Origin: a phage
Direction: 5' to 3' (one strand)
NCBI GenBank assembly: GCA_037431425.1
Contig: GCA_037431425.1_4129.1
Length of the DNA stretch: 64,000 nucleotides
The stretch's first letter is position 1, and each line of letters begins with the position of its first letter. The position numbers and the translations under genes were made by a program. Below are positions 2,890 through 45,819 of this stretch, one piece after another. The notes beneath the pieces are model-generated. The model saw nothing but the letters and a program-made list of their open reading frames with translations. It was not told the DNA's origin and did not search any database.

Positions 2890-2967
2890 AATATTCAATA
2901 AGAGAATTAATGAGTTATTAAATAGTTAGAGATCAAAACACATACATTCGCAGTTACGTCAAAAATC

Positions 2968-3003
2968 ACTTTATATTACCCAGTACTAGTACTGGGTATT
3001 TTT
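2968..3003 (+). terminator. terminator-like hairpin
   Basis: CCCAGTACTAGTACTGGG palindrome followed by TATTTTTAT. Confidence 0.5.
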
Positions 3004-3456: not shown

Positions 3457-4026
3457 ATGAACTTTATTAAATTCAACACATCTGAGTCAGAAGCATACTT
3501 TAATACAAATAATAAATTTAATATTATTCTTAAAGACGGAACGGTTGTTATCGGAGTATCATTGCTTTCATTTGATGGCGAAAAACTCGAAACTGTTTAT
3601 AAATTCACCAATCTTGATGGTGATTATTGGGATACATCAGATGTATCTAAAATTTGCACACATTATGTATTTGAATCTATTGAAGTTGGTGATGGCTGGG
3701 CATTGACCTGCAATGGTAATAAAGTATTTTCTGGTAACATATTTGGGGTAATTTCCAGTAAAGAAATAGTAGACCATCATCTTCATGTTCTCAATAATAA
3801 CGCCAACACTTATACACCTGATAATATCAAAATTCACGATATTGTAACATATATTGATTATAATGGTTTCAGACATAAAGCAATTGTAACTGAAATTAAA
3901 AAACCAAAAAATTATTTCGATCACGGTTTGATTGAAGTATATATGGTAGGTGGCGAAAAACAATACTTTGAACATTTCACTTATACTGGTTGGGATAGAT
4001 TCCTAACCGTTATTGAGGAATACTAA
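3457..4026 (+). CDS. hypothetical protein
   Basis: Track ORF; SD aaggaga upstream. Confidence 0.55.
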   Translation: MNFIKFNTSESEAYFNTNNKFNIILKDGTVVIGVSLLSFDGEKLETVYKFTNLDGDYWDTSDVSKICTHYVFESIEVGDGWALTCNGNKVFSGNIFGVISSKEIVDHHLHVLNNNANTYTPDNIKIHDIVTYIDYNGFRHKAIVTEIKKPKNYFDHGLIEVYMVGGEKQYFEHFTYTGWDRFLTVIEEY

Positions 4027-6344: not shown

Positions 6345-6509
6345 ATGACGCATGAAGAATGGATGAATGACATTAATTTTAGATATGCAGGTATCGGTAA
6401 CTGGAGAAAGTATCATTGGGAAATCATATCAGACCCAGCAGAATACGATAAACTTATGAATCATGAAGTGTATCCGTGGTTCTTTATTGAAATAATGGTA
6501 CGATTATGA
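6345..6509 (+). CDS. small protein, MTHEEWMNDINFRY family, copy 1 (54 aa)
   Basis: Manually found; SD aaaggtta; ATGA overlap with copy 2; near-identical N-terminus across three tandem copies. Confidence 0.5.
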   Translation: MTHEEWMNDINFRYAGIGNWRKYHWEIISDPAEYDKLMNHEVYPWFFIEIMVRL

Positions 6510-6666
6510 CACATGAAGAATGGATGAATGACATTAATTTTAGATATTCGGGTATCGGTAAATGGCTAAAGTATCATTGGGAATTCATTTCAGAGCCACA
6601 TCTGTATGATAAACTTATCAACGATTCTGCATATAAAATGTACTTAATTGAACTACTGGTACGAAC

Positions 6667-6670
<4 letters not shown>
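6506..6670 (+). CDS. small protein, MTHEEWMNDINFRY family, copy 2 (54 aa)
   Basis: Tandem paralog; ATGA overlaps on both sides. Confidence 0.5.
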
Positions 6671-6839
<169 letters not shown>

Positions 6840-6843
6840 AATC

Positions 6844-7284
<441 letters not shown>

Positions 7285-7622: not shown

Positions 7623-7661
<39 letters not shown>

Positions 7662-9913: not shown

Positions 9914-9987
9914 GCCTCAATAGCAAAATTGGTAATGCACACGTTTTGTAAGCGTGAGATTTTTCCGTTCGAGTCGGAATTGGGGCA
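9914..9987 (+). tRNA. tRNA-Thr (anticodon UGU), tentative
   Basis: Hand-folded: acceptor GCCTCAA/TTGGGGC (one GU), anticodon stem CACGT/GCGTG loop TTTGTAA, T-arm TTCCG-TTCGAGT-CGGAA; D-arm and variable loop slightly irregular. Confidence 0.55.
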
Positions 9988-10004
9988 CAAAATAAAGGCA
10001 CACT

Positions 10005-10421
10005 ATGACATACAATATTGTTAAAATGGTGAACTATGTATTAAAAAACAACTCATGGTCACTGCATGATGTACAATTAGAAGATATTGGTGAAGTTAGA
10101 GTATTTTGCTATGATGACGATTTGAACGAAACCACTGATTTGAGTAAATGTTTTAATATTTTTCTTGGTTATGAAATCAATAATCATTTTTATTCATTTG
10201 ATGTGTATTTTGAACGAGTTAAAATCAGAATTGCTAATGTAAATAGTGATTATTATGACACTAGAATTGAATTGAATTTTGATGATATAGATACTGAAGA
10301 AAAATTCTTTCAGTACTGTCTCGTAAACGATCTAAATGGATTGACATTTGAGGACATTAAAGCTATACTTAAAGTTCAAAGATTGATACCAGAAGAGGTT
10401 CTAAATCCCTTTAATGACTAG
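10005..10421 (+). CDS. hypothetical protein with C-terminal EEKFFQY module
   Basis: Track ORF; paralog-like to 10414..10779. Confidence 0.55.
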   Translation: MTYNIVKMVNYVLKNNSWSLHDVQLEDIGEVRVFCYDDDLNETTDLSKCFNIFLGYEINNHFYSFDVYFERVKIRIANVNSDYYDTRIELNFDDIDTEEKFFQYCLVNDLNGLTFEDIKAILKVQRLIPEEVLNPFND

Positions 10422-21733: not shown

Positions 21734-21762
21734 AGGTTGGCATATGCCAACCTTTTTTATTG
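21734..21762 (+). terminator. rho-independent terminator after the sigma factor gene
   Basis: AAGGTTGGCATATGCCAACCTT followed by T-run. Confidence 0.65.
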
Positions 21763-29674: not shown

Positions 29675-29866
29675 ATGTTGATTTATCAATGTGACGGTAT
29701 TCGTGTTCTACAACATCCTTATCTTCAAATCTTTCATGTTCAGATGTTTATGGAAGGTGATAATCCGAGAACTTATGAACGCACATATGATTATTTCACG
29801 GTCAAAGAGTGCGACAACATCGATGAAGTACGACGATTAGTACATGAACTCCAAAACAAAGGTTGA
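29675..29866 (+). CDS. hypothetical small protein
   Basis: Track ORF ending inside the first PeSL-like module. Confidence 0.5.
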   Translation: MLIYQCDGIRVLQHPYLQIFHVQMFMEGDNPRTYERTYDYFTVKECDNIDEVRRLVHELQNKG

Positions 29867-29892
29867 CTTCGGTCAGCCTTTTTTGTTATAAT
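29858..29892 (+). promoter_or_regulatory. PeSL-like module 1: terminator hairpin with embedded -35 TTGACT plus downstream -10
   Basis: GGTTGAC-TTCG-GTCAGCC stem-loop, T-run, then TATAAT 18 nt after TTGACT. Confidence 0.65.
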
Positions 29893-29920
29893 TATTTTAT
29901 ATTCTAATGGAGTTTAAATT

Positions 29921-30979: not shown

Positions 30980-31120
30980 TGTGAATTGAAATGATCATTT
31001 AAGCATCATTGTAAATGTAGAAATGGTGTACATGAAGTATAATATAAAAAGGGAAATCATATATGGTTTCCCCTTTTTCTTATTACGTACAATTAAGGAC
31101 ATATATTAATTGAGGAAATT

Positions 31121-32263: not shown

Positions 32264-32647
32264 ATGGTTGATAAATGGAATAAGAAAGAACCATCTCATG
32301 ATGTGGATATTTCTGACCTAGATAATGAACATAAACACAAGTACCTAGATTCACTAGGACTACTAAAGCCGGACCAAAGTATTGCACATGATCGTCCTTC
32401 ACGTGAAAAAGCATTCAGTCTGGAATCTCTAGGTCATGAGCTAAATCGTGTGTTTGAAGAACACCCAATCTATGTACGTGATATTATTGAGAAACTTAAA
32501 GTAACTCCTAAAGAGCACTTTAAAGCAACTGTACACTCTGCATTCAATGCATTACATGAAGCACTTAAGAAAACTCACAACCTTCGTAAGATTCATGATG
32601 ATATTGTAAATGCAATTGAAAGTGAAAAGCATAAGTTCAAAAAGTAA
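32264..32647 (+). CDS. hypothetical charged protein
   Basis: Track ORF; SD aggag; followed by PeSL-like module. Confidence 0.55.
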   Translation: MVDKWNKKEPSHDVDISDLDNEHKHKYLDSLGLLKPDQSIAHDRPSREKAFSLESLGHELNRVFEEHPIYVRDIIEKLKVTPKEHFKATVHSAFNALHEALKKTHNLRKIHDDIVNAIESEKHKFKK

Positions 32648-32653
32648 TAGAAA

Positions 32654-32686
32654 GGGTTGACTTCGGTCAGCCTTTTTTTATATACT
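32654..32686 (+). promoter_or_regulatory. PeSL-like module 2
   Basis: GGGTTGACTTCGGTCAGCC + T7 + TATACT. Confidence 0.6.
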
Positions 32687-32711
32687 ATAAATATAATCAT
32701 AGAGAAAAAAC

Positions 32712-33983
32712 ATGAAATCTATGGAGAGAAATCAAATGCCAAGTAATTTTACTGATAAAAATGGTGGTAACATGGCAGGTCACTCGGATAAATGGAGTGA
32801 ACGCAACCGCCGCCCAAATAGTTACCAAGCAGGCCAAGGTTCCCGTGGCTCCAGAAACCAAGGAACGGGACTTGCTGGCAAGGCAAACGCAGAAGCAGGT
32901 GAAGTTAAGAGTACTGAGAACATGACTGAGCTAGAAAAGCTACGTTATGTTAATTCATTAGGACTTCTTAATGCTACACAAAAACAACGTCTAGCTGATA
33001 TGGAACGCGAAGAAAAAGAAAAAACAACTACTAAAGAAGAATCAAAACAGGAAGCACCGAAGCCGTCTAACCCTGTCAAAGAACTGTCTGATAAGTTAGG
33101 TAAGATCTTTGCAAATAAACCCCAACTTATTCAAGGTATTGTCAAAGAATTACAATCTGTACCTAAAGAAGAATTAAAAGTCAAAGCACAAGCTGTTCTG
33201 GATGCAATGAAAGGAAATACCAGTACTGAACCAACTGAAGTGTTCAGTACTATTATGCGTGCACTGGAAGGTAAACAACAAGGTGAAGAACGTGGTGATG
33301 AAGTAAGTCTTGAACGTATTCTTAAAACATTTGATAGTATTGGGAAAGAAGATCGTGTTAATGCACAACAGGTTAAAAATGTTCTAGCAAAATTGGAAAA
33401 CCGTCTAGAAGGTAAAGATGATAAGATTAAATTGGTATCTGATGTAGTTGACAATGCACTTAAATCTTATGTACAAGGTGAAAAGAGTCGTTTTGTGACC
33501 GCGATGGATGCAGCATTCAATACTATGAAAAAGTACGAAGCTGACCATGGTGAGAAGGTTACACCTGATGGTTATCTGATGCGTGATGATGAAGAAGGTG
33601 CAGTAGAACAGAATGATGTTCATTCTGACGAAGATATTGATGACATGGAAGCTGAACTGTCACAAGATCGCCAAATGACTGAAAAATCACACAACGAACT
33701 AAAGAAATTAATGCAGTGGGTCGCTGATGTTGGAGAAAAAGCGGGTGCTGATAAGAAAAGTATAAACCGAAATCTTAGTTGGATTAAAGATAAAGTAGGT
33801 AACAACGCTCGCAAACTACAAAAAGCATGGACTGATGTAGTGAATGGTGCAGTAGATATTGACGTTGAATCTGGTGAAGCATATGATTATGCATTGACTA
33901 CACTTGATGATTCTTTTCGTGACTACGAAAAAGGAAACGTGACTCCTTGGGAAAAGGACATAATGAGCAAATACGGCAAATGA
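32712..33983 (+). CDS. hypothetical highly charged, low-complexity protein (about 420 aa)
   Basis: Long track ORF flanked by PeSL-like modules; N-terminal start ambiguous (ATGs at 32712, 32721, 32736). Confidence 0.6.
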   Translation: MKSMERNQMPSNFTDKNGGNMAGHSDKWSERNRRPNSYQAGQGSRGSRNQGTGLAGKANAEAGEVKSTENMTELEKLRYVNSLGLLNATQKQRLADMEREEKEKTTTKEESKQEAPKPSNPVKELSDKLGKIFANKPQLIQGIVKELQSVPKEELKVKAQAVLDAMKGNTSTEPTEVFSTIMRALEGKQQGEERGDEVSLERILKTFDSIGKEDRVNAQQVKNVLAKLENRLEGKDDKIKLVSDVVDNALKSYVQGEKSRFVTAMDAAFNTMKKYEADHGEKVTPDGYLMRDDEEGAVEQNDVHSDEDIDDMEAELSQDRQMTEKSHNELKKLMQWVADVGEKAGADKKSINRNLSWIKDKVGNNARKLQKAWTDVVNGAVDIDVESGEAYDYALTTLDDSFRDYEKGNVTPWEKDIMSKYGK

Positions 33984-33991
33984 TAACAAAA

Positions 33992-34024
33992 AGGTTGACT
34001 TCGGTCAGCCTTTTTTGTTATGAT
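33992..34024 (+). promoter_or_regulatory. PeSL-like module 3
   Basis: GGTTGACTTCGGTCAGCC + T6 + TATGAT. Confidence 0.6.
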
Positions 34025-34052
34025 AGTGCTATCCACTATTGAGGCCAGAGAG

Positions 34053-38496: not shown

Positions 38497-38910
38497 ATGA
38501 AGAAGTGTATCACGTGTAATATTGAAAAAGACATTAGTGAATTTGGTATAAGAAAAGATACTGGGAAACATAGAAATACATGCAAAGGTTGTAGTAATAT
38601 TACCAGTAAGAAAACCAGAAATAAAAAAACTGATGTCAAAAAACTTGAAGAAATCAAAAGAAAAAATAAAGATTTCATGTCCAGAGTTAAATCATTTTAT
38701 GGTTGTAGTATTTGTATGATGAAGTATCCAGAATGTTTAGACTTTCATCATCTTGATCCGAATATCAAAGAACATACACCAAGTTCTATGTTCAGTAAAA
38801 GTCGAGATGCTATCAAAGATGAAATTCGAAAGTGTATGATTCTTTGTTCTAATCATCATCGCATGGTCCATTCTGGAAGACTATGCTTAATTGAAAGAAA
38901 AAAGGGTTGA
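38497..38910 (+). CDS. HNH endonuclease-like protein (homing-endonuclease-like)
   Basis: Track ORF; CxxC...CxxC and DFHHLDP...CSNHHRMVH fit an HNH/zinc-finger motif. Confidence 0.6.
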   Translation: MKKCITCNIEKDISEFGIRKDTGKHRNTCKGCSNITSKKTRNKKTDVKKLEEIKRKNKDFMSRVKSFYGCSICMMKYPECLDFHHLDPNIKEHTPSSMFSKSRDAIKDEIRKCMILCSNHHRMVHSGRLCLIERKKG

Positions 38911-38936
38911 CTTCTGTCAGCCCTTTTTGCTATAAT
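38904..38936 (+). promoter_or_regulatory. PeSL-like module 4
   Basis: GGGTTGACTTCTGTCAGCCC + T5 + GCTATAAT; downstream roughly 25 bp identical to module 6. Confidence 0.65.
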
Positions 38937-38966
38937 CATTTCATCGAAGCTTGAGGATATTAAAAA

Positions 38967-39449
38967 ATGAACTACTTAGATTTGATTAACTCATATGTAA
39001 TTAGCCCATATATTAACGATGAAAGTATTAAATGTGTAGTATCAGTTGAGGATCACCCAACTGGTGCATTAAAACTATTTGGTGCAGGTCAAATTAACAA
39101 CCGCAACGGGTATACATTTGAATATTTACCATCAAGTGATAAGTTTGGATGTTATGACCACGAAACAAATAAGGGATATATTTGGGGAACACACTTAAGT
39201 ATTGCACAATCTTCGCTTTTCGAAGACCATAATGGGTATATGTGGCGATATTTAGGTGCAGTACTGCTTGATATCGCCCGTAGGTATAAGAAGTGTATAA
39301 CATTAACTTATACTCATACAAATGAATATAAAAACGAAGTTCAAGTTATTGATGAGGATTTTTTTAAAAATATTCCTTATATTGATTTTAACTGTCAAAA
39401 TGGTTATGCTACATACCCAGCAAGTTTTGAAGGTGAAAGATACTTTTAA
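38967..39449 (+). CDS. hypothetical protein
   Basis: Track ORF downstream of PeSL-like promoter; SD gagga. Confidence 0.6.
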   Translation: MNYLDLINSYVISPYINDESIKCVVSVEDHPTGALKLFGAGQINNRNGYTFEYLPSSDKFGCYDHETNKGYIWGTHLSIAQSSLFEDHNGYMWRYLGAVLLDIARRYKKCITLTYTHTNEYKNEVQVIDEDFFKNIPYIDFNCQNGYATYPASFEGERYF

Positions 39450-39541
39450 AAAGAGTTGATTTAAAATGTATAAGTGATATACTTATCATATCAAGACGAA
39501 ACAACAACCAACATGTAAACGCTACTAATTAGGAGACACAC

Positions 39542-39952
39542 ATGATCAACAAACATTTCGCAGTTTCCAAAACTGTAACCATCGATAATGAATGGGAAAT
39601 TACCATTCTAAATGATACGGCTCGTGGACTACTGGCAGAGAATATTCTCCAGAAGTATATTGACTGTGAATCTGAGTTGATCATTCATGAACGCACTAAA
39701 TTTCTTCTAATTGGTGGAAAGAAATGTAAAGTTCTGGTATTCACCGACAAAATGACTCGTGCAGATATCATTACTAAATTGGTTAGTTCTTCACGTCATC
39801 GTCCGGGTGTTAATAGATCAATTGATGAGATTAAAGAAATGAAGCCAGGTGATTTATTCATTGTTGCAGGGTTTGATTCAAAAACAAGAAAAATGAGTAT
39901 TTCAGAAATGTATACTAATGCTGAAATGCGTAACAAATTCTTTTCTAACTAA
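39542..39952 (+). CDS. hypothetical protein
   Basis: Track ORF; SD aggaga. Confidence 0.55.
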   Translation: MINKHFAVSKTVTIDNEWEITILNDTARGLLAENILQKYIDCESELIIHERTKFLLIGGKKCKVLVFTDKMTRADIITKLVSSSRHRPGVNRSIDEIKEMKPGDLFIVAGFDSKTRKMSISEMYTNAEMRNKFFSN

Positions 39953-39987
39953 TCAACCCATGTAGTGTAATCTTATACACATTTTAG

Positions 39988-41205
39988 ATGGATAAAAATA
40001 TGATCTTCGAAACTGAAAAAACATTACTTGAAACTTACACTTTGGATAATCTAGTTAAACTTAACCTTGAACGACCAGATATCCAACGCAATTGGCAATG
40101 GAAAAATAATAACCAAAACAATCTTATTATTTCCATTCTAAAGAATTCTCCAATTGGTCAATTTTTAGTATGGAATGAAACTAGTTCAAATACGATGTAC
40201 ATCACTGATGGTCGTCATCGCTATACAGTAATTTCAAACTTCATGAACAATAAATTCCCAGTCACTGTTAGAACTGAAGATGGGACTAAGGATTATTATT
40301 ATGGTTCTGATGATCCAGTAGAAGAAGAAAGCATTTCACTGAAACTTGGTGGAAAGCGTAAAACATGGGATTTTTTATCTAAAGAAGAGCGTGATGCTTT
40401 TCGTGCAAAGGAAGTATCAGTAACATTCGTTCATACAGACGATGCTGAAAAGATTTCAGATATGTTTATTGCAATTAATACTGCATCATCTAATCTATGT
40501 AAAGTTGATTTGTTAGTATGTAAGCACCACACAAATACATATATGAAACGTATTGATAAGCTATTTTCAATTGAGTTTGGCAAAGATGAACCCATGGCAG
40601 CATTAGTGAGTGATTTTTACCGTGCAATCGGTCATTGTTGTGTTAATGGTAATCATGAGAAACACTTATCGAAGCTTAAAGCTAACCCTAAAGTACAGAA
40701 GCGTGAATTTTTTGAAATGTTCTTTATGGTCAAAGCGTTCGCGAAATTATGTGCTAGTGCACTAGATGGTAAGCTAAACTCATACCGTATGCCAAAGATG
40801 AACCAACAAATTGAAGAAGCAATTATTAGTACTGAATCTCTTAGTGAGAAACATGCTGATGCTGATTTTGTTCAGTTTGTTAATGCAGTTCGTGAGATGA
40901 ATTTGGTATCACCTGTAAAATCTGCACAAAAATTTCAATTTATCCATGAAGATATGAAGAATACCTTTAATAAGAGACTCTTTTGTATTTTGATGGGATT
41001 GTTTTATGCTTATGGTACAAGATTGCCATTACATTTTCGTGATGTATGGGGTGACATTTATAATGAAATGTCAGAAAAAAGTTCAGAACTACCTACTAAT
41101 GGAACCGATAGTCCTTCCGCAATTTTAGCTGGCATTGAAATGATTGAACCATACTTTAGTTCAGCATTTAATAATATTCCATTGAGTGCTTACGTGGGAA
41201 AGTGA
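39988..41205 (+). CDS. DUF262/ParB-like nuclease-domain protein (GmrSD N-terminal-like)
   Basis: N-terminal PDIQRNWQW and DGRHR motifs resemble the DUF262 signature (QR..W and DGQQR); stop overlaps the GTG start of the next HNH ORF. Confidence 0.6.
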   Translation: MDKNMIFETEKTLLETYTLDNLVKLNLERPDIQRNWQWKNNNQNNLIISILKNSPIGQFLVWNETSSNTMYITDGRHRYTVISNFMNNKFPVTVRTEDGTKDYYYGSDDPVEEESISLKLGGKRKTWDFLSKEERDAFRAKEVSVTFVHTDDAEKISDMFIAINTASSNLCKVDLLVCKHHTNTYMKRIDKLFSIEFGKDEPMAALVSDFYRAIGHCCVNGNHEKHLSKLKANPKVQKREFFEMFFMVKAFAKLCASALDGKLNSYRMPKMNQQIEEAIISTESLSEKHADADFVQFVNAVREMNLVSPVKSAQKFQFIHEDMKNTFNKRLFCILMGLFYAYGTRLPLHFRDVWGDIYNEMSEKSSELPTNGTDSPSAILAGIEMIEPYFSSAFNNIPLSAYVGK

Positions 41206-41414
41206 AAAAACGTGGTGTACTAAATACACCACAAAAACAATATCTTTTGAAAAGATATTCTTTGTGTTATCTTTGTGGACAGAAGATATCGGATTCAGAT
41301 ATACTACATTTTGACCATGTTCAATCATTAAAAGATGGTGGTAGTAATGAATTAAGTAATATACGACCAACGCACTCCATTTGTAATTTACGTAAAGGTG
41401 CTAAGAGTATGTAA
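41202..41414 (+). CDS. small HNH endonuclease
   Basis: CxxC followed by HFDHVQSLKDGGSNELSNIRPTHSICNLRKG (HNH); GTGA overlap with upstream stop suggests translational coupling. Confidence 0.65.
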   Translation: MKKRGVLNTPQKQYLLKRYSLCYLCGQKISDSDILHFDHVQSLKDGGSNELSNIRPTHSICNLRKGAKSM

Positions 41415-41463
41415 AGCTAATACTCCCCAAAGATGGGGAGTATATATAATTAAAGGGATTTAT

Positions 41464-42300
41464 ATGAGTATTAAAAATAAATTAGATCAGTATTATACAA
41501 ATCCAGAGTATGCTAAAAAATGTTATACTAAATCATTAGAGTTTATTTCGTCTCGAATGGACATTAATTCATCTTATTATATGGAGCCTTGTGTTGGGAC
41601 TGGTTCGTTTTATCTACAGTTTCCTGAATCCCGTCGATTTGGGTGTGACATTGATCCGGTACATCTTGATGAAAATGTTATCCATTCCGATTTTTTACTT
41701 GAATTTGGTATCAATGCAAGAAGTAAAGGTGAACCAATACTTGTTATAAGTAATCCACCTTTTGGGAAAATTTCTTCTTTAGCCATTAAGTTTTTTAATA
41801 AATGTGCATCAATGCCTGAAGTGAAATATATTTGTTTTATTGTCCCTATGACATTTCGAAAAGCAGCAACACAAAATAAACTCAATGAGATGTTTCACCT
41901 GGTATTAGATGAAGATTCACCAAATGACGCTTTTATACTGCACGGAGAACCACATCATGTACCATGCGTATTTCAGATATGGGAACGTAGGGATACAGTT
42001 CGTGAGAAACATGAGATTAAGAACAAATCAGACTATTTCGACTATTGTACTAAGGAAGAGGCTGATGTTTTTATAAAACGTGTAGGAACCAAAGCAGGTG
42101 AGTATGCCGAGCCAGGGAAAGAACACAAAGATGCAAGTATGTACTACATTAAAACTAAGTATGTTGATGAAATCATTAAGGTTTTGAAAAGTAAAGATTA
42201 CCTTGATGAGATAAAACGTATACGTAAAACCACAGCAGGGGTATACTGTGTGTCCAAATCTGAAATCGTTCTTAATATTGAAAAACGTTTGAATCTTTGA
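41464..42300 (+). CDS. N6-adenine DNA methyltransferase (NPPF-type)
   Basis: Track ORF 41398..42300 trimmed to ATG 41464 with SD aaaggga; motif I EPCVGTGSF and motif IV SNPPFGK. Confidence 0.7.
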   Translation: MSIKNKLDQYYTNPEYAKKCYTKSLEFISSRMDINSSYYMEPCVGTGSFYLQFPESRRFGCDIDPVHLDENVIHSDFLLEFGINARSKGEPILVISNPPFGKISSLAIKFFNKCASMPEVKYICFIVPMTFRKAATQNKLNEMFHLVLDEDSPNDAFILHGEPHHVPCVFQIWERRDTVREKHEIKNKSDYFDYCTKEEADVFIKRVGTKAGEYAEPGKEHKDASMYYIKTKYVDEIIKVLKSKDYLDEIKRIRKTTAGVYCVSKSEIVLNIEKRLNL

Positions 42301-42308
42301 AAATTATA

Positions 42309-42340
42309 GGTTGACTTCGGTCAGCCTTTATTGTTATAAT
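42309..42340 (+). promoter_or_regulatory. PeSL-like module 5 (upstream of denV)
   Basis: GGTTGACTTCGGTCAGCC + TTTATTG + TTATAAT. Confidence 0.6.
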
Positions 42341-42368
42341 CATTTTATATAACCAAGAGGATGATTAC

Positions 42369-42872
42369 ATGACACGCATTAATTTAGTACACGTTAAAGA
42401 ACTTGCTGACCAACATTTGATGGCTGAATATCGTGAACTTCCACGGGTGTTCGGTGCTGTACAAAAACACGTTCAAGCACGTAAGCGTGTCCGTGATTTT
42501 AAAATTAACAGTACTTATCTGTTAGGTTCAGGCCATGTGACATTCTTCTACGACAAGTTACTGTACTTACAAAAGCGTCATGTTGAGATTGTTAACGAAT
42601 GTTTGCGTCGTGGTATGAAGATTCAAAACACGGAAGTAAACGACATCAGCGGCTTCCCTGATGAGTTTTGTAATGACTACGTACCATCGGAGTCAGAGAT
42701 TAAAATGTCTCGTGACCGTTTGATTGAGAAGCTCCAGATGAAGCCTAAGTGGTATAAGTTTACTGCTGTTGAAATTCCACAGTACGTTAAAGATATGCAG
42801 AACGTAAAATCTAGTACTGATATGTTCGAAGAAATTGAAGAGCAAATCAAAGATGAAATGAATAATTATTAA
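42369..42872 (+). CDS. denV: endonuclease V, pyrimidine-dimer DNA glycosylase/AP lyase
   Basis: N-terminal half [35 protein letters not shown]...[10 protein letters not shown] closely matches T4 DenV as recalled; flanked by PeSL-like modules. Confidence 0.9.
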
Positions 42873-42876
42873 AGGT

Positions 42877-42911
42877 AAGGGTTGACTTCGGTCAACCCTT
42901 TTTGCTATAAT
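42877..42911 (+). promoter_or_regulatory. PeSL-like module 6 (downstream of denV)
   Basis: AAGGGTTGACTTCGGTCAACCCTT perfect 10-bp stem + T-run + GCTATAAT. Confidence 0.65.
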
Positions 42912-42939
42912 CATTTCATCAACTACAGAGGGTAACGAA

Positions 42940-43713
42940 ATGAACCGTACAGAAAAAGCACTTCAAATCGAAAAAAACTTCAACTCCATGATGGCAGCAC
43001 TGGAATGTCTTCTGGATACGCAAACTAACTCCATCAATTCTTTGATTGTATCAGGAAAAGGTGGTGTTGGTAAAACTTACAACGTTGACCAGCGTTTACG
43101 GAAAGCGGATGATAACTTTGAAATTGACTACAAAAAAATCAGTGGTAAAGTAACTACTGTGGGTCTGTACGAAGCACTGTATCGTTCACGTCATGCTGCT
43201 TCTGTACTGTTGCTGGATGATGTTGATATCTTCTCTGATGAGACTAACATTGACTTACTCAAAGCTGTATTGGATACATCTGAAAAGCGTGTAGTATCAT
43301 ATGCAACATCTGCTAAGTACCTTGAACAGCAGGGTATTCCTAAGCAGTTTGAATTCCGTGGTAAGGTTATTTTCCTGACGAACAAAAACCTGTCACAGAT
43401 TGCTAAAGGTAAAAGTAGTTTAGCACCACACATCGATGCACTGATTACTCGTAGCATCTTTGTTGATCTGCAACTGTTTACAAATGAAGAAGTAATGATT
43501 CACATTGAAAATATTATGAACAAAACAAACATCCTTGAAAACAATGGTGTTAACAAAAATGGTTGCAAAGCAATTCTGAATTGGATGCTGAACAATGAAG
43601 ATCGTCTGCGTAGCCCATCACTGCGTATGCCAGTACTGATCGCTGGTTTGTATAATAAATTTCCATACGACTGGGAGTCTATGGCAGAGAATATGTTCCT
43701 TGAGAAAATTTAA
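42940..43713 (+). CDS. P-loop NTPase
   Basis: Walker A SGKGGVGKT and Walker B-like VLLLDDVD; SD gagggtaa. Confidence 0.6.
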   Translation: MNRTEKALQIEKNFNSMMAALECLLDTQTNSINSLIVSGKGGVGKTYNVDQRLRKADDNFEIDYKKISGKVTTVGLYEALYRSRHAASVLLLDDVDIFSDETNIDLLKAVLDTSEKRVVSYATSAKYLEQQGIPKQFEFRGKVIFLTNKNLSQIAKGKSSLAPHIDALITRSIFVDLQLFTNEEVMIHIENIMNKTNILENNGVNKNGCKAILNWMLNNEDRLRSPSLRMPVLIAGLYNKFPYDWESMAENMFLEKI

Positions 43714-43775
43714 TTATATGTGTTGACGATTCTACTATAGTGTAGTTCTATAATACTTCATACTGGAGATACGAT

Positions 43776-44117
43776 ATGCTTGAGTTTTTTAATTCAAATA
43801 CAATGCTTGGTATTACTTTAATTTACATGTTTGTATTTTTGTTTTATCATTCAATTGTAATTAGTCTGTGGTATTTTAAAAGGAAAGTTGTTTTTAAATT
43901 GTATTCGTATGATAATGTATTCTTAGTTGTATATAGTATTGTACAAGGTGGGTTTATTTTATTTGGTATTATGACTTATTTCATTTATCGATTGGAAATT
44001 GATAATACACCACACATTACACAATATGTTGTGTTTTCGGGACTAATCGTGTGGTTGTTGACATGTGTCGTGTACTTTATTATTAAAGCTCGTGACAAAA
44101 TTAAAGGGGAATTCTAA
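43776..44117 (+). CDS. small two-helix membrane protein, RxKI family, copy B1
   Basis: Track ORF; first of eight tandem paralogs; C-terminal ARDKIKGEF. Confidence 0.55.
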   Translation: MLEFFNSNTMLGITLIYMFVFLFYHSIVISLWYFKRKVVFKLYSYDNVFLVVYSIVQGGFILFGIMTYFIYRLEIDNTPHITQYVVFSGLIVWLLTCVVYFIIKARDKIKGEF

Positions 44118-44455
44118 TGTTAACATTTTTTCAGTCAGATACAATGATTAGTATTACGTTGATTTATCTGTTTGGATTTTTCTTTTATCATGCACTAGTT
44201 GTAGTACTATGGTATTTTAAAAAGAATATAGTTTTCAAACTGTATCCTAAAGGAAACGTTTCATTACTTCTTTTCACTATTATCCAAGGTATCTTTGCAA
44301 TTTTTGGTATTACTGCACATTTAATTTATTGTGCTAATCCACATTTGAACTCAATATCACAATACATTGTATTTTTTGGATTACTAATTTGGGTACTAAT
44401 ATACGTAACTAATCTCATCATTAATGGTAGAGCTAAAATTCACGGGGACTTTTAA
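44117..44455 (+). CDS. small two-helix membrane protein, copy B2
   Basis: Tandem paralog; N-terminus nearly identical to B1; ATGA-type junction. Confidence 0.55.
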   Translation: MLTFFQSDTMISITLIYLFGFFFYHALVVVLWYFKKNIVFKLYPKGNVSLLLFTIIQGIFAIFGITAHLIYCANPHLNSISQYIVFFGLLIWVLIYVTNLIINGRAKIHGDF

Positions 44456-44802
44456 TGTTTGAATCTTATCTTGACTTTTTAAGGAATAGTCCAGTAGCAC
44501 ACTCACTTGCTGGGATTGTTCTATCAGGCTATATCACATTTTGGGTAGTTATGTTTCTAGGATGGTATTTTAAACGACAATTCTATAAGCGTAACGGTGA
44601 AGATTTTATGAATTCTGCTATTAATCAATCGTTGTTTGCATCAACATTGATAGCATCAATTGTAGCAACACTCACTGGTGCAGTTCTACCAGCATTCGCC
44701 GCAGTTTACGGCACACTTGGAGTGGTATGTTTATCTTTTATATTGATCATTAAACTTTGTTGTGTTATGATTGAACTTCGAAATAAGATACCGGAGGAAT
44801 GA
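44455..44802 (+). CDS. small membrane protein, copy B3
   Basis: Tandem paralog; C-terminal LRNKIPEE. Confidence 0.55.
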   Translation: MFESYLDFLRNSPVAHSLAGIVLSGYITFWVVMFLGWYFKRQFYKRNGEDFMNSAINQSLFASTLIASIVATLTGAVLPAFAAVYGTLGVVCLSFILIIKLCCVMIELRNKIPEE

Positions 44803-45137
44803 TGGAGTATTTTATTGATTTACTGCCGTGGTATATGAAAGTGAGTATTTTATACTATATTATTAGTACTGGATTCTACTTCCTGATGTGGTTTTTTAAA
44901 CGACCAATTTCAGTGTACATCGCTGATAACATGCTGCAATTAAAATTACAAGCATGGTTTTATATGGCGATGTTTATGCCTATTATTCACTACTCAATGA
45001 TTAGTCTAGGTTTACGTTCTAATGGTGAACCAATTGTATTAGTATTCTATTGGGCTTCAACTCTAGTATATGTCGGTTTGTTGTTATACCCAATCGTTCA
45101 TATATTACGTGCTAAAGTTCCTGATGCGAGGTACTAA
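44799..45137 (+). CDS. small membrane protein, copy B4
   Basis: Tandem paralog; C-terminal LRAKVPDARY. Confidence 0.55.
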   Translation: MMEYFIDLLPWYMKVSILYYIISTGFYFLMWFFKRPISVYIADNMLQLKLQAWFYMAMFMPIIHYSMISLGLRSNGEPIVLVFYWASTLVYVGLLLYPIVHILRAKVPDARY

Positions 45138-45451
45138 TGGATATAGTAACATTGATTTACACGTTGTATTCATTCTATTTTATTATGTGTTGGATTGGAT
45201 TTTTATTTGTACTGAAGACGTTTGATTATGTTGAAAGACAGATAAAAGAATTTTGTATTCCTTTTATTGGGTCAACCATAATTAGTATTACTTGTTTGTA
45301 TTATTTGGTATGTGATCCACCAGATAACACTGCAATGATTGACTTTATGTTAGCACCAACTACTGTTATTTTTTTATGTAGTCTGCTGCCACCTATTAGT
45401 CGTGGGTTAGCAGAATTTAGACGCAAACAAAAGCTTAAACGAGGGATGTAA
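45137..45451 (+). CDS. small membrane protein, copy B5
   Basis: Tandem paralog; overlapping start/stop. Confidence 0.5.
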   Translation: MDIVTLIYTLYSFYFIMCWIGFLFVLKTFDYVERQIKEFCIPFIGSTIISITCLYYLVCDPPDNTAMIDFMLAPTTVIFLCSLLPPISRGLAEFRRKQKLKRGM

Positions 45452-45819
45452 TGGAAATCACACTTATTATATTAACTTCTATGTTGTTTATTAGTACAGT
45501 TGTTATTATTGGCAAGTTCTTCTGTGTATCCTTCTTGGAAACCGTATATGATGAAATTGCAGATGATTATGAATTAGAAGCAGGATTTTTTATTACGTAT
45601 TGGGTTAGTTTATTACTGCTTATCACAGTATGGGTTTTGCATATATTCCAATGGGGTATGGTTGGTGATGATCCATTACTGGGAATTATTTGTGCGACAT
45701 TTGGGCTACTGACTGGTGCTGCCCACAATCTGATAGTAATTGTGCAAACTATAAAATGCGTATTAGTTCCACATTTTCAGAGAATGCACCAAAACATTAA
45801 ACGCCGCAAACGAGGTTAA
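45451..45819 (+). CDS. small membrane protein, copy B6
   Basis: Tandem paralog. Confidence 0.5.
   Translation: MEITLIILTSMLFISTVVIIGKFFCVSFLETVYDEIADDYELEAGFFITYWVSLLLLITVWVLHIFQWGMVGDDPLLGIICATFGLLTGAAHNLIVIVQTIKCVLVPHFQRMHQNIKRRKRG

Follow-up and report, generated by a model that had tools for sequence, protein, structure and literature searches.

A resident denV gene between PeSL-like modules in a 121Q-type jumbo coliphage

Promoter-early stem-loops (PeSLs) have been described in T4-like phages, namely in RB49 and phi1 (Arbiol et al. 2010, PMC2839356) and in the pairs PST/T4 and nt-1/KVP40 (Comeau et al. 2014, PMC4122927). Their promoter and terminator activity and the formation of mini-circles have been shown experimentally in this group, and the elements concentrate in hyperplastic regions and mark indel junctions, some of them as 'half' PeSLs; crossovers have been placed in their loops (PMC2839356, PMC4122927). 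Mini-circles carrying a single open reading frame (ORF) have been demonstrated in RB49/phi1 (PMC2839356). The present analysis concerns denV, the gene for a T4-type endonuclease V, in a 64,000-nt stretch of phage DNA (GenBank assembly GCA_037431425.1, contig GCA_037431425.1_4129.1; hereafter the window), where it lies between two copies of a short module that, judged from its sequence, is of the PeSL type. The window belongs to a jumbo coliphage of the 121Q type (genus Asteriusvirus; about 350 kb), and not to a T4-like phage. The gene content beside denV varies between related genomes, with the junctions falling inside the modules, while denV itself stays in place.

The denV gene and its flanking modules

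Six copies of GGTTGACTTCGGTCARCCYTT are present in the window, all in plus-strand orientation (at 29861, 32655, 33993, 38905, 42309 and 42880), compared with zero in 100 shuffles of the window. The initial annotation had described denV as bracketed by two PeSL-like modules, and this holds for the copies at 42309 and 42880: copy 5 lies 40 nt ahead of the ATG and copy 6 lies 5 nt past the stop codon. The interval that it had singled out, 42309–42911, opens with base 1 of module 5 and ends exactly on the final base of the −10 box of module 6. When aligned, the copies form modules of about 45 nt with a constant order of parts, comprising an A-rich tract, a stem-loop, a run of T, a TATAAT-like box, a Shine-Dalgarno (SD) sequence and an ATG. 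The hairpin has 8–12 bp and its 5' arm coincides with the −35 hexamer TTGACT, so that a predicted terminator and a predicted promoter overlap within about 45 nt. The modules and denV are as follows, with phage 121Q as the point of comparison where one is given.

29850–29895, plus strand: module 1; kept in 121Q, without a breakpoint
32644–32689, plus strand: module 2; at this place 121Q has two modules around a 114-bp ORF (gene 200)
33982–34027, plus strand: module 3; at this place 121Q has two modules around about 1.1 kb (genes 202–204)
38894–38958, plus strand: module 4; hairpin of −20 kcal/mol (z = −6.8), TTGACT-18-TATAAT with the TG extension
42298–42368, plus strand: module 5; predicted hairpin/terminator at 42308–42327 with a U-rich tail, −35 TTGACT at 42311–42316, extended −10 TGtTATAAT at 42332–42340, predicted transcription start site near 42347, SD GAGG at 42357–42360
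42369–42872, plus strand: denV, T4-type endonuclease V, 167 amino acids; from the ORF list, Pfam and T4 homology
42869–42939, plus strand: module 6; hairpin at 42877–42900 (−16.7 kcal/mol, z = −4.9), T5 at 42901–42905, −35 at 42882–42887, −10 at 42906–42911, then an SD sequence and, at 42940, the start codon of the following gene

With regard to the promoter part, the scan returned TTGACT and TATAAT separated by 18 bp, with 10–11 of 12 positions matching (11 in modules 1, 4, 5 and 6) and TATGAT or TATACT as the −10 box in two copies. The TG extension (TGnTATAAT) is found in five of the six modules, including both copies that flank denV, and an A-rich tract resembling an UP element lies upstream of each module promoter. 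In all six modules a GAGG-like SD sequence follows, and then an ATG 25–35 nt after the −10 box. As for the stem-loops, RNA folding gave −11.6 to −20 kcal/mol with z from −3.0 to −6.8, the weakest hairpin being that of module 5 (−11.6 kcal/mol, z = −3.0). In the terminator scan, the hairpin after denV (42877–42900, ten pairs followed by TTTTT) ranks first in a 19-kb region. Terminator-like hairpins were also noticed inside denV (42477 and 42644), but these are weak, lack a proper T-run and were taken as chance.

Around the modules lie, for the most part, small hypothetical ORFs. Modules 2 and 3 enclose a single ORF of 423 amino acids (32712–33983), a homolog of the 121Q gp201 'structural protein', and denV is therefore not the only single-gene interval. 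A reading of the modules as miniature inverted-repeat transposable elements or transposons was rejected, as neither target duplications nor a transposase were found and all copies are co-oriented with a gene start. Two other features of the window recall parts of the modules. A second promoter-like family with a conserved sequence, TTGACW-N6-TYCAGTACTGTATAATGTT, is present on the plus strand at 6844, 7253, 24139, 36725 and 61028, with a related copy at 7633; it is without a terminator hairpin, and its five matches compare with zero expected, three of them lying within 800 bp. The sequence AAAGGTTGGCATATGCCAACCTTTTTT (21735–21752) is a plain terminator-like hairpin of similar A/T-tract design, with neither TTGAC nor a −10 box.

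Endonuclease V is a pyrimidine-dimer DNA glycosylase/apurinic-apyrimidinic lyase that cuts at pyrimidine dimers induced by ultraviolet light. By all comparisons made at the sequence level, the ORF at 42369–42872 is a true T4-type endonuclease V homolog and looks functional, as the initial annotation had proposed. It matches Pfam PF03013 (Pyr_excise) with 57.5 bits against a cut-off of 23 (E = 1.8e-15), its residues 1–132 match the T4 endonuclease V structures 2END and 1VAS (E = 3.7e-54), and T4 DenV used as a tblastn query finds it at 64% identity (E = 6e-58). The similarity on alignment is thus highly significant, with about 62–64% identity to T4 DenV over 131–132 aligned residues. The gene is ordinary and already annotated, being labelled endonuclease V in the records of ph0011, fEgEco12 and 121Q.

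Thr2, Arg3, Arg22, Glu23 and Arg26 are all kept in the alignment with T4. The first 31 residues are nearly the same as in T4, with an identical MTRINL start and an identical 13-residue segment, and the protein carries YRELPR. Thr2 and Glu23 align to T4, and it is at these positions that the mutant chains 1ENK, 1ENJ and 1ENI deviate among the structure matches; Arg3, Arg22 and Arg26 are invariant in the DenV alignment. In the T4 enzyme, the alpha-amino group of Thr2, after removal of the Met, is the nucleophile, Glu23 is catalytic, and Arg3, Arg22 and Arg26 are basic DNA-binding residues. In the C-terminal aromatic segment, WYKFT compared with WYKYY in T4, W128, Y129 and K130 are invariant and the last two residues differ. 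Residues 1–132 form the catalytic domain, and residues 133–167 (42765–42869) an acidic C-terminal extension of about 30 residues, which is common to 121Q and UE-S1 and absent in T4, Klebsiella phage Muenster and WPEC3. The last two phages have short, differing C-termini, and the nucleotide homology between the denV of the window and that of WPEC3 ends at 42785. In comparison with T4 endonuclease V, the catalytic domain is alike, whereas the jumbo-phage DenV adds the acidic tail and all of the T4 gene neighbours are absent. A single-sequence AlphaFold2 model was too poor for use (mean pLDDT, the predicted local distance difference test, of 35), and it is the 62–64% identity to solved structures that points to the all-alpha endonuclease V fold.

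A fixed locus with changing neighbours

In a megablast search, positions 41000–45000 of the window showed 99% identity to Escherichia phage ph0011 (OP557969), a 348-kb Asteriusvirus, and 84–94% identity over parts of the query to about 38 further phages of the 121Q/PBECO4 group. In all six genomes that were examined (ph0011, fEgEco12, 121Q, UE-S1, CRJP21 and WPEC3), denV has the same position and orientation, with a conserved 270-bp gene upstream, with or without an HNH gene, and an NrdC.10-like ATPase gene downstream, after which a row of genes for small membrane proteins begins. DenV is found at 80% identity or more in at least 37 phage records, 39 records matching the region, and neither a second denV copy nor another denV location was seen in the Asteriusvirus genomes inspected.

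The initial annotation had also noted that the T4 lysozyme gene, which it placed near denV in T4, is not recognisable in the window, and had concluded that the region is rearranged relative to T4. The placement was correct, the T4 order being e – ipIII – ipII – denV – vs.8, and so was the absence: when 14 T4 proteins from around denV (among them e, ipII, ipIII, nudE, vs.3–vs.8 and regB) were searched in the 64-kb window, only DenV matched and the 13 others gave zero matches. The conclusion, however, was misframed, because an Asteriusvirus genome that shares none of the T4 denV neighbours has no synteny to be rearranged, and the reading of the locus through T4 synteny was rejected. The neighbours that are present are the following.

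38497–38910, plus strand: free-standing, Cys-rich HNH-type endonuclease gene, 137 amino acids; annotated as HNH in relatives, no Pfam match
38959–42308, plus strand: 3.35-kb island with orf160, orf136, a DUF262/GmrSD_N gene, a 70-amino-acid HNH gene and a type II N6-adenine methyltransferase gene
42940–43713, plus strand: NrdC.10-like AAA ATPase gene; weak Pfam AAA_16 match, conserved right-hand neighbour of denV

Upstream of denV, the genomes fall into three arrangements. 121Q, UE-S1 and CRJP21 pass from the 270-bp gene through a module directly to denV; WPEC3 and fEgEco12 have an additional HNH-type gene ahead of the denV module; and in the window and ph0011 the HNH gene is followed by module 4, the 3.35-kb island, module 5 and denV. 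The HNH-type gene has 94–97% nucleotide identity in fEgEco12, vB_Ec-M-J, JP4, WPEC3, EC.P1 and UB, and is absent in 121Q, UE-S1 and CRJP21. Since its TGA stop sits in the −35 TTGAC of module 4, its ORF runs through the A-tract of the module. Of 50,697 phage records, ph0011 alone has the complete island, which is absent in 121Q, UE-S1, WPEC3, CRJP21 and fEgEco12. Module 4, read as the ancestral denV module, is identical to that of WPEC3 and fEgEco12 as far as CATCGAA, just past the −10 box, and then continues as the leader of the first gene of the island. The left part of module 5 is unique to the island, and its right part, GAGGATGA.TACATG, matches the ancestral denV leader. ph0011, the sole relative that shares the island, has the same gene order and the same three modules as the window, while fEgEco12 has the layout of module, denV, module and ATPase gene found in the window, but without the island.

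On the downstream side, denV is followed in the window, ph0011 and fEgEco12 by a full module and the ATPase gene. In 121Q, CRJP21 and UE-S1, denV is followed by a 5' half-module only, GGGTTGACTTCGGT joined to TACACAAAGG (at 3522, 4347 and 5584 of the respective locus extracts), in which the A-tract, 5' arm, loop and GTYA are fused to the ribosome-binding site of the next gene; 0.7–2.9 kb of other genes then precede a full module and the ATPase gene. WPEC3 has still other genes after denV, together with its different DenV C-terminus. From its sequence, the half-module looks like a recombination scar, and because of it denV would probably be co-transcribed with the downstream genes in these three phages. 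In 121Q and UE-S1, the counterpart of module 6 is divided over two places: its left half matches the half-module behind denV and its right half the module before the ATPase gene, with an overlap at 42877–42892, in the stem and loop.

The association of modules with junctions extends beyond denV. Five of the six large indels between the window and 121Q (24–46 kb) abut modules, although the modules account for about 1% of the sequence in the 22 kb compared; the part from 24 to 37 kb served as an independent indel test outside the denV region. In this comparison, 121Q gene 200, the 114-bp ORF, lies between two modules 183 bp apart (extract 9938–10140) and is absent in the window. Gene 200 is thereby a single-gene cassette smaller than the denV unit, and the window keeps one module (module 2) in its place.

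On a longer timescale, denV has a history of its own. DenV proteins of Asteriusvirus and Alcyoneusvirus share 77–79% identity, and the jumbo-phage DenVs have 59–62% identity to T4 DenV and 52–56% to that of a Klebsiella T4-like phage, whereas jumbo and T-even DenVs are only 33–39% identical to those of RB43 and KVP40. In a midpoint-rooted neighbour-joining tree of nine sequences, the jumbo DenV clade is sister to the T-even clade. The adjacent NrdC.10-like ATPase, used as a control gene, is about equally distant from T4 NrdC.10 (41% identity) and from its KVP40 counterpart (42%), with 54% identity to the RaK2 protein and 51% to that of GAP32. As DenV is close to T4 while the ATPase is equidistant from T4 and KVP40, it is likely that denV moved horizontally, long ago, between an ancestor of these jumbo phages and the T-even lineage. 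In Klebsiella phage Muenster, an Alcyoneusvirus, denV has different neighbours and again a module directly upstream, and no denV is present at the equivalent locus of GAP32. Taken over these genomes, denV looks like accessory cargo on a long timescale and a fixed resident within the genus. In T4 itself, a T4-early-type promoter, GTTTAC ... TATGATACTAT, lies upstream of denV (extract 2940–3000) and is enclosed by the inverted repeat CTCCTGTAG ... CTACAGGAG, a combination of promoter and stem-loop that was seen by eye only.

With regard to the island, Pfam returned GmrSD_N (8.6e-18) and HNH (1.1e-11), and PADLOC returned NsnA (2.6e-15) and MTase_II (5.7e-34); the 70-amino-acid HNH nuclease gene overlaps the end of the DUF262 gene. 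GAP32 has the same order of DUF262, small HNH and methyltransferase genes (22%, 46% and 69% amino acid identity), and there too modules flank the set and the same ATPase gene lies downstream of it. By its predicted products, the island appears to be a restriction/defence-like gene set in a lytic jumbo phage. Pfam searches of its small ORFs, the HNH-type gene and a membrane-protein paralog gave zero matches.

Several observations were made on the right-hand side of the locus. The 5' two-thirds of the ATPase gene (42940–43495) are far more diverged from 121Q (extract 6449–7000) than the flanks are, the megablast match to 121Q begins only at about 43495, and about 17 phage records have an ATPase of at least 60% amino acid identity; the pattern suggests alternative alleles, with possible mosaicism within the gene. 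Further on (43776–45819) there are six consecutive genes for hydrophobic proteins of 104–122 amino acids with overlapping stop and start codons, of which at least the first two are paralogous (70–76% nucleotide identity between copies). The array has one copy fewer in WPEC3 and fEgEco12, and its GAP32 equivalents are annotated as membrane proteins with three transmembrane segments. In the GenBank record of CRJP21 the product names look shifted: 'Endonuclease V' is the name given to a gene of 339 bp that lies ten genes further upstream, the real denV, of 516 bp, appears as hypothetical, and the ATPase and membrane-protein genes are labelled 'Regulator of chromosome condensation'. In the annotations of ph0011, fEgEco12 and 121Q, the modules never appear as promoter-terminator units, and some are labelled 'terminator' only.

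Proposed mechanism and competing explanations

The best explanation of these results, which we hold with good confidence, is that denV is a resident, genus-conserved gene in an early/accessory region punctuated by PeSL-type modules, which would act as early regulatory units and as the places at which cassettes are exchanged. In RNA reading through from upstream, a module would fold as a GC-clamped UUCG hairpin followed by a U-run and act as an intrinsic terminator, while the same stretch as DNA would be a strong sigma-70 early promoter, with TTGACT and, 18 bp downstream, TGnTATAAT. Host RNA polymerase would thus start at module 5 (near 42347), transcribe denV and stop at module 6 (42877–42905), so that denV would be expressed early from a separate mRNA of about 555 nt, and the promoter embedded in module 6 would start a separate transcript for the ATPase operon. 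A monocistronic unit of this length is the natural reading of the predicted signals. Being the sole sequence common to unrelated neighbour genes, the modules could act as portable recombination homology of 40–50 bp, through which general recombination in mixed infections would swap cassettes, and after a swap every gene would retain a promoter, a terminator and a ribosome-binding site. In the lineage of the window, the 3.35-kb island would have recombined between the old denV promoter and denV, bringing module 5 with it.

In this explanation the stem-loop works as RNA. Another view is that the inverted repeat over the −35 hexamer is a DNA operator at which a phage or host regulator shuts off early promoters, and not an RNA terminator, since a palindrome centred on the −35 is a common operator layout and all copies stand at promoters of one temporal class. 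The two were compared on 26 full modules, 23 of them distinct, which come from six genomes of two genera (that of the window, Klebsiella phage Muenster and four further Asteriusviruses). Standard pairs occupy 96% of the pair cells in the 26 modules and 25–62% once the partners are slid. One stem pair covaries, being GC in 15 sequences and AU in 5, and a U.G wobble is present in 19 of the 23 distinct sequences, in which the palindrome is therefore imperfect as DNA (T opposite G) and yet pairs in RNA. The 5' arm is invariant, presumably because it also serves as the −35 hexamer, and the 3' arm varies only by transitions that preserve pairing, since the variants, in which A or G faces U or else U faces G, all still pair in RNA. 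Moreover, the loops are UUCG or GAAA, which are extra-stable RNA tetraloops, and every hairpin has an A-run before it and a T-run after it. Wobble, covariation and tetraloops together favour an RNA hairpin/terminator, and the operator hypothesis, disfavoured by this pattern, is highly improbable.

The initial annotation had seen denV as an independently transcribed and potentially mobile unit. The observation was confirmed and this interpretation is partly supported: a promoter before the gene and a terminator after it are predicted from the sequence, but mobility does not agree with a locus fixed in six genomes. In its explicit form, the mobile alternative is that denV and one module make up a PeSL cassette, excised as a 571-bp mini-circle by recombination between modules 5 and 6 and able to re-insert at another module or in another phage. 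Modules 5 and 6 are indeed direct repeats, which share about 85% identity across 41 nt and an exact core of 15 nt, and single-ORF PeSL mini-circles are known in RB49/phi1 (PMC2839356). The DenV identities (62% to T4 against 33–39% to RB43 and KVP40, the ATPase having about 41% to both T4 and KVP40), the other neighbours and directly upstream module of the Muenster denV, and the lack of denV at the GAP32 locus could likewise be read as traces of movement. However, the position and orientation are identical in six of six Asteriusvirus genomes inspected, at least 37 of the 39 records that match here contain denV, neither an extra copy nor another site was seen, and the half-module downstream in 121Q, UE-S1 and CRJP21 leaves no excisable denV unit there. 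A mobile denV is therefore rejected at the level of the genus, and the alternative as a whole is quite unlikely. It is also rather unlikely that the modules are ordinary selected regulatory signals with no recombination role, at which breakpoints coincide through the survival of intergenic junctions. The composition of a module is near-fully set by function (−35, its complement, tetraloop, GC clamp and A/T tracts), module 1 is unbroken, one indel lies off-module, and no dedicated recombinase is evident near the modules, all of which this alternative accommodates. It does not account as well for junctions that fall within the 45-nt module, in the loop/3' arm of module 6 and between −10 and SD in modules 4 and 5. 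These leave modules that are chimeric yet intact, as homologous exchange within a repeat predicts, unlike random intergenic joining; nor does it account as well for the half-modules at junctions, or for five of six indels at elements covering about 1% of the sequence.

Some points weigh against the explanation by a resident denV and module-based exchange. Promoter and terminator activity is predicted only, and the early timing, the recombination mechanism and the direction of events are likewise what we infer. The weakest hairpin of the six, in module 5, together with its interrupted U-tract (UUUAUUG), could let transcripts of the methyltransferase operon run on into denV, in which case denV would not be strictly monocistronic. 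In the modules, the spacer of 18 bp is one longer than optimal. The module junctions could partly reflect survivorship, gene-breaking recombinants being lost; the indel at 30998–31103 is away from any module, and module 1 shows no breakpoint in the comparison with 121Q. Additionally, both downstream arrangements occur (fEgEco12 and ph0011 as against 121Q, UE-S1 and CRJP21), and either a deletion or an insertion may lie between them. An earlier proposal that the adjacency of denV and the ATPase gene arose by a deletion in the ph0011 lineage was withdrawn, since fEgEco12 has the same adjacency without the island.

Relation to described PeSL elements

A BLAST search with the 46-nt consensus found 6–9 copies per genome in Asteriusviruses and in other Rak2-like jumbo phages, including RaK2, Munch, 7t3 and relatives from Erwinia and Yersinia, GAP32 having been checked directly. 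The modules are thereby found in Asteriusvirus, Alcyoneusvirus and Mimasvirus. Close copies are also present in KVP40-like vibriophages, and a 29-nt core of the Asteriusvirus consensus, AAAAGGGTTGACTTCGGTCAGCCCTTTTT, is identical (29/29) in the KVP40-like Vibrio phage D480, where it lies between the DNA ligase gene and a hypothetical gene (extract 2500–2545). One could propose that the shared core is not convergent and acts as a cross-family 'recombination adaptor', by which unrelated large myoviruses co-infecting a cell trade ready-to-express cassettes, a proposal that we regard as rather unlikely. If true, the T-even-like denV and the island with DUF262, HNH and methyltransferase genes would be examples of this adaptor traffic.

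In the papers that could be searched on 121Q, RaK2, GAP32, CBB, PA5oct, fEgEco12 and relatives, no PeSL-type elements or shuffling are described; the same papers report sigma-70-like promoters and terminators separately. In PA5oct, a related jumbo phage that uses the host RNA polymerase, RNA-seq shows promoters of the form TTGAC/TATAATA where transcription starts (PMC7318152). For Rak2-like jumbo phages, shuffling of the PeSL type appears to be undescribed so far, and a mechanism earlier described only for T4-like phages seems to be active, by means of nearly the same element, in the early region of at least three Rak2-like genera. If true, this would explain how accessory genes, such as restriction/defence-like islands and homing endonucleases, turn over in genomes of 350 kb with expression undisturbed. 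The modules would also offer a simple annotation signature for early transcription units and recombination hotspots, and candidate safe insertion sites with their own promoter and terminator for phage engineering.

When compared part by part, the modules and the published PeSLs both have an AT-rich tract, a stem-loop, a sigma-70-like promoter, an SD sequence and an ATG. Both cluster among small ORFs of unknown function, both mark indel junctions between close relatives, and half elements occur in both. The stem formula of nt-1/KVP40, A3-4 G3 – loop – C3 T3-4, matches the modules of the window exactly. The differences are in the host genome, a Rak2-like jumbo phage here and T4-like phages for the published elements, and in the placement of the parts. 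Here the 5' arm of the stem contains the −35 hexamer; in RB49/phi1, as described, the stem stands between the boxes or covers them, and in PST and nt-1 it immediately precedes the promoter. The spacer is 18 bp with an extended −10 box here, compared with a PeSL promoter spacing of about 17. The PeSL-like organisation and its link to gene turnover in Rak2-like jumbo phages would modestly extend a known mechanism to a further group of phages.

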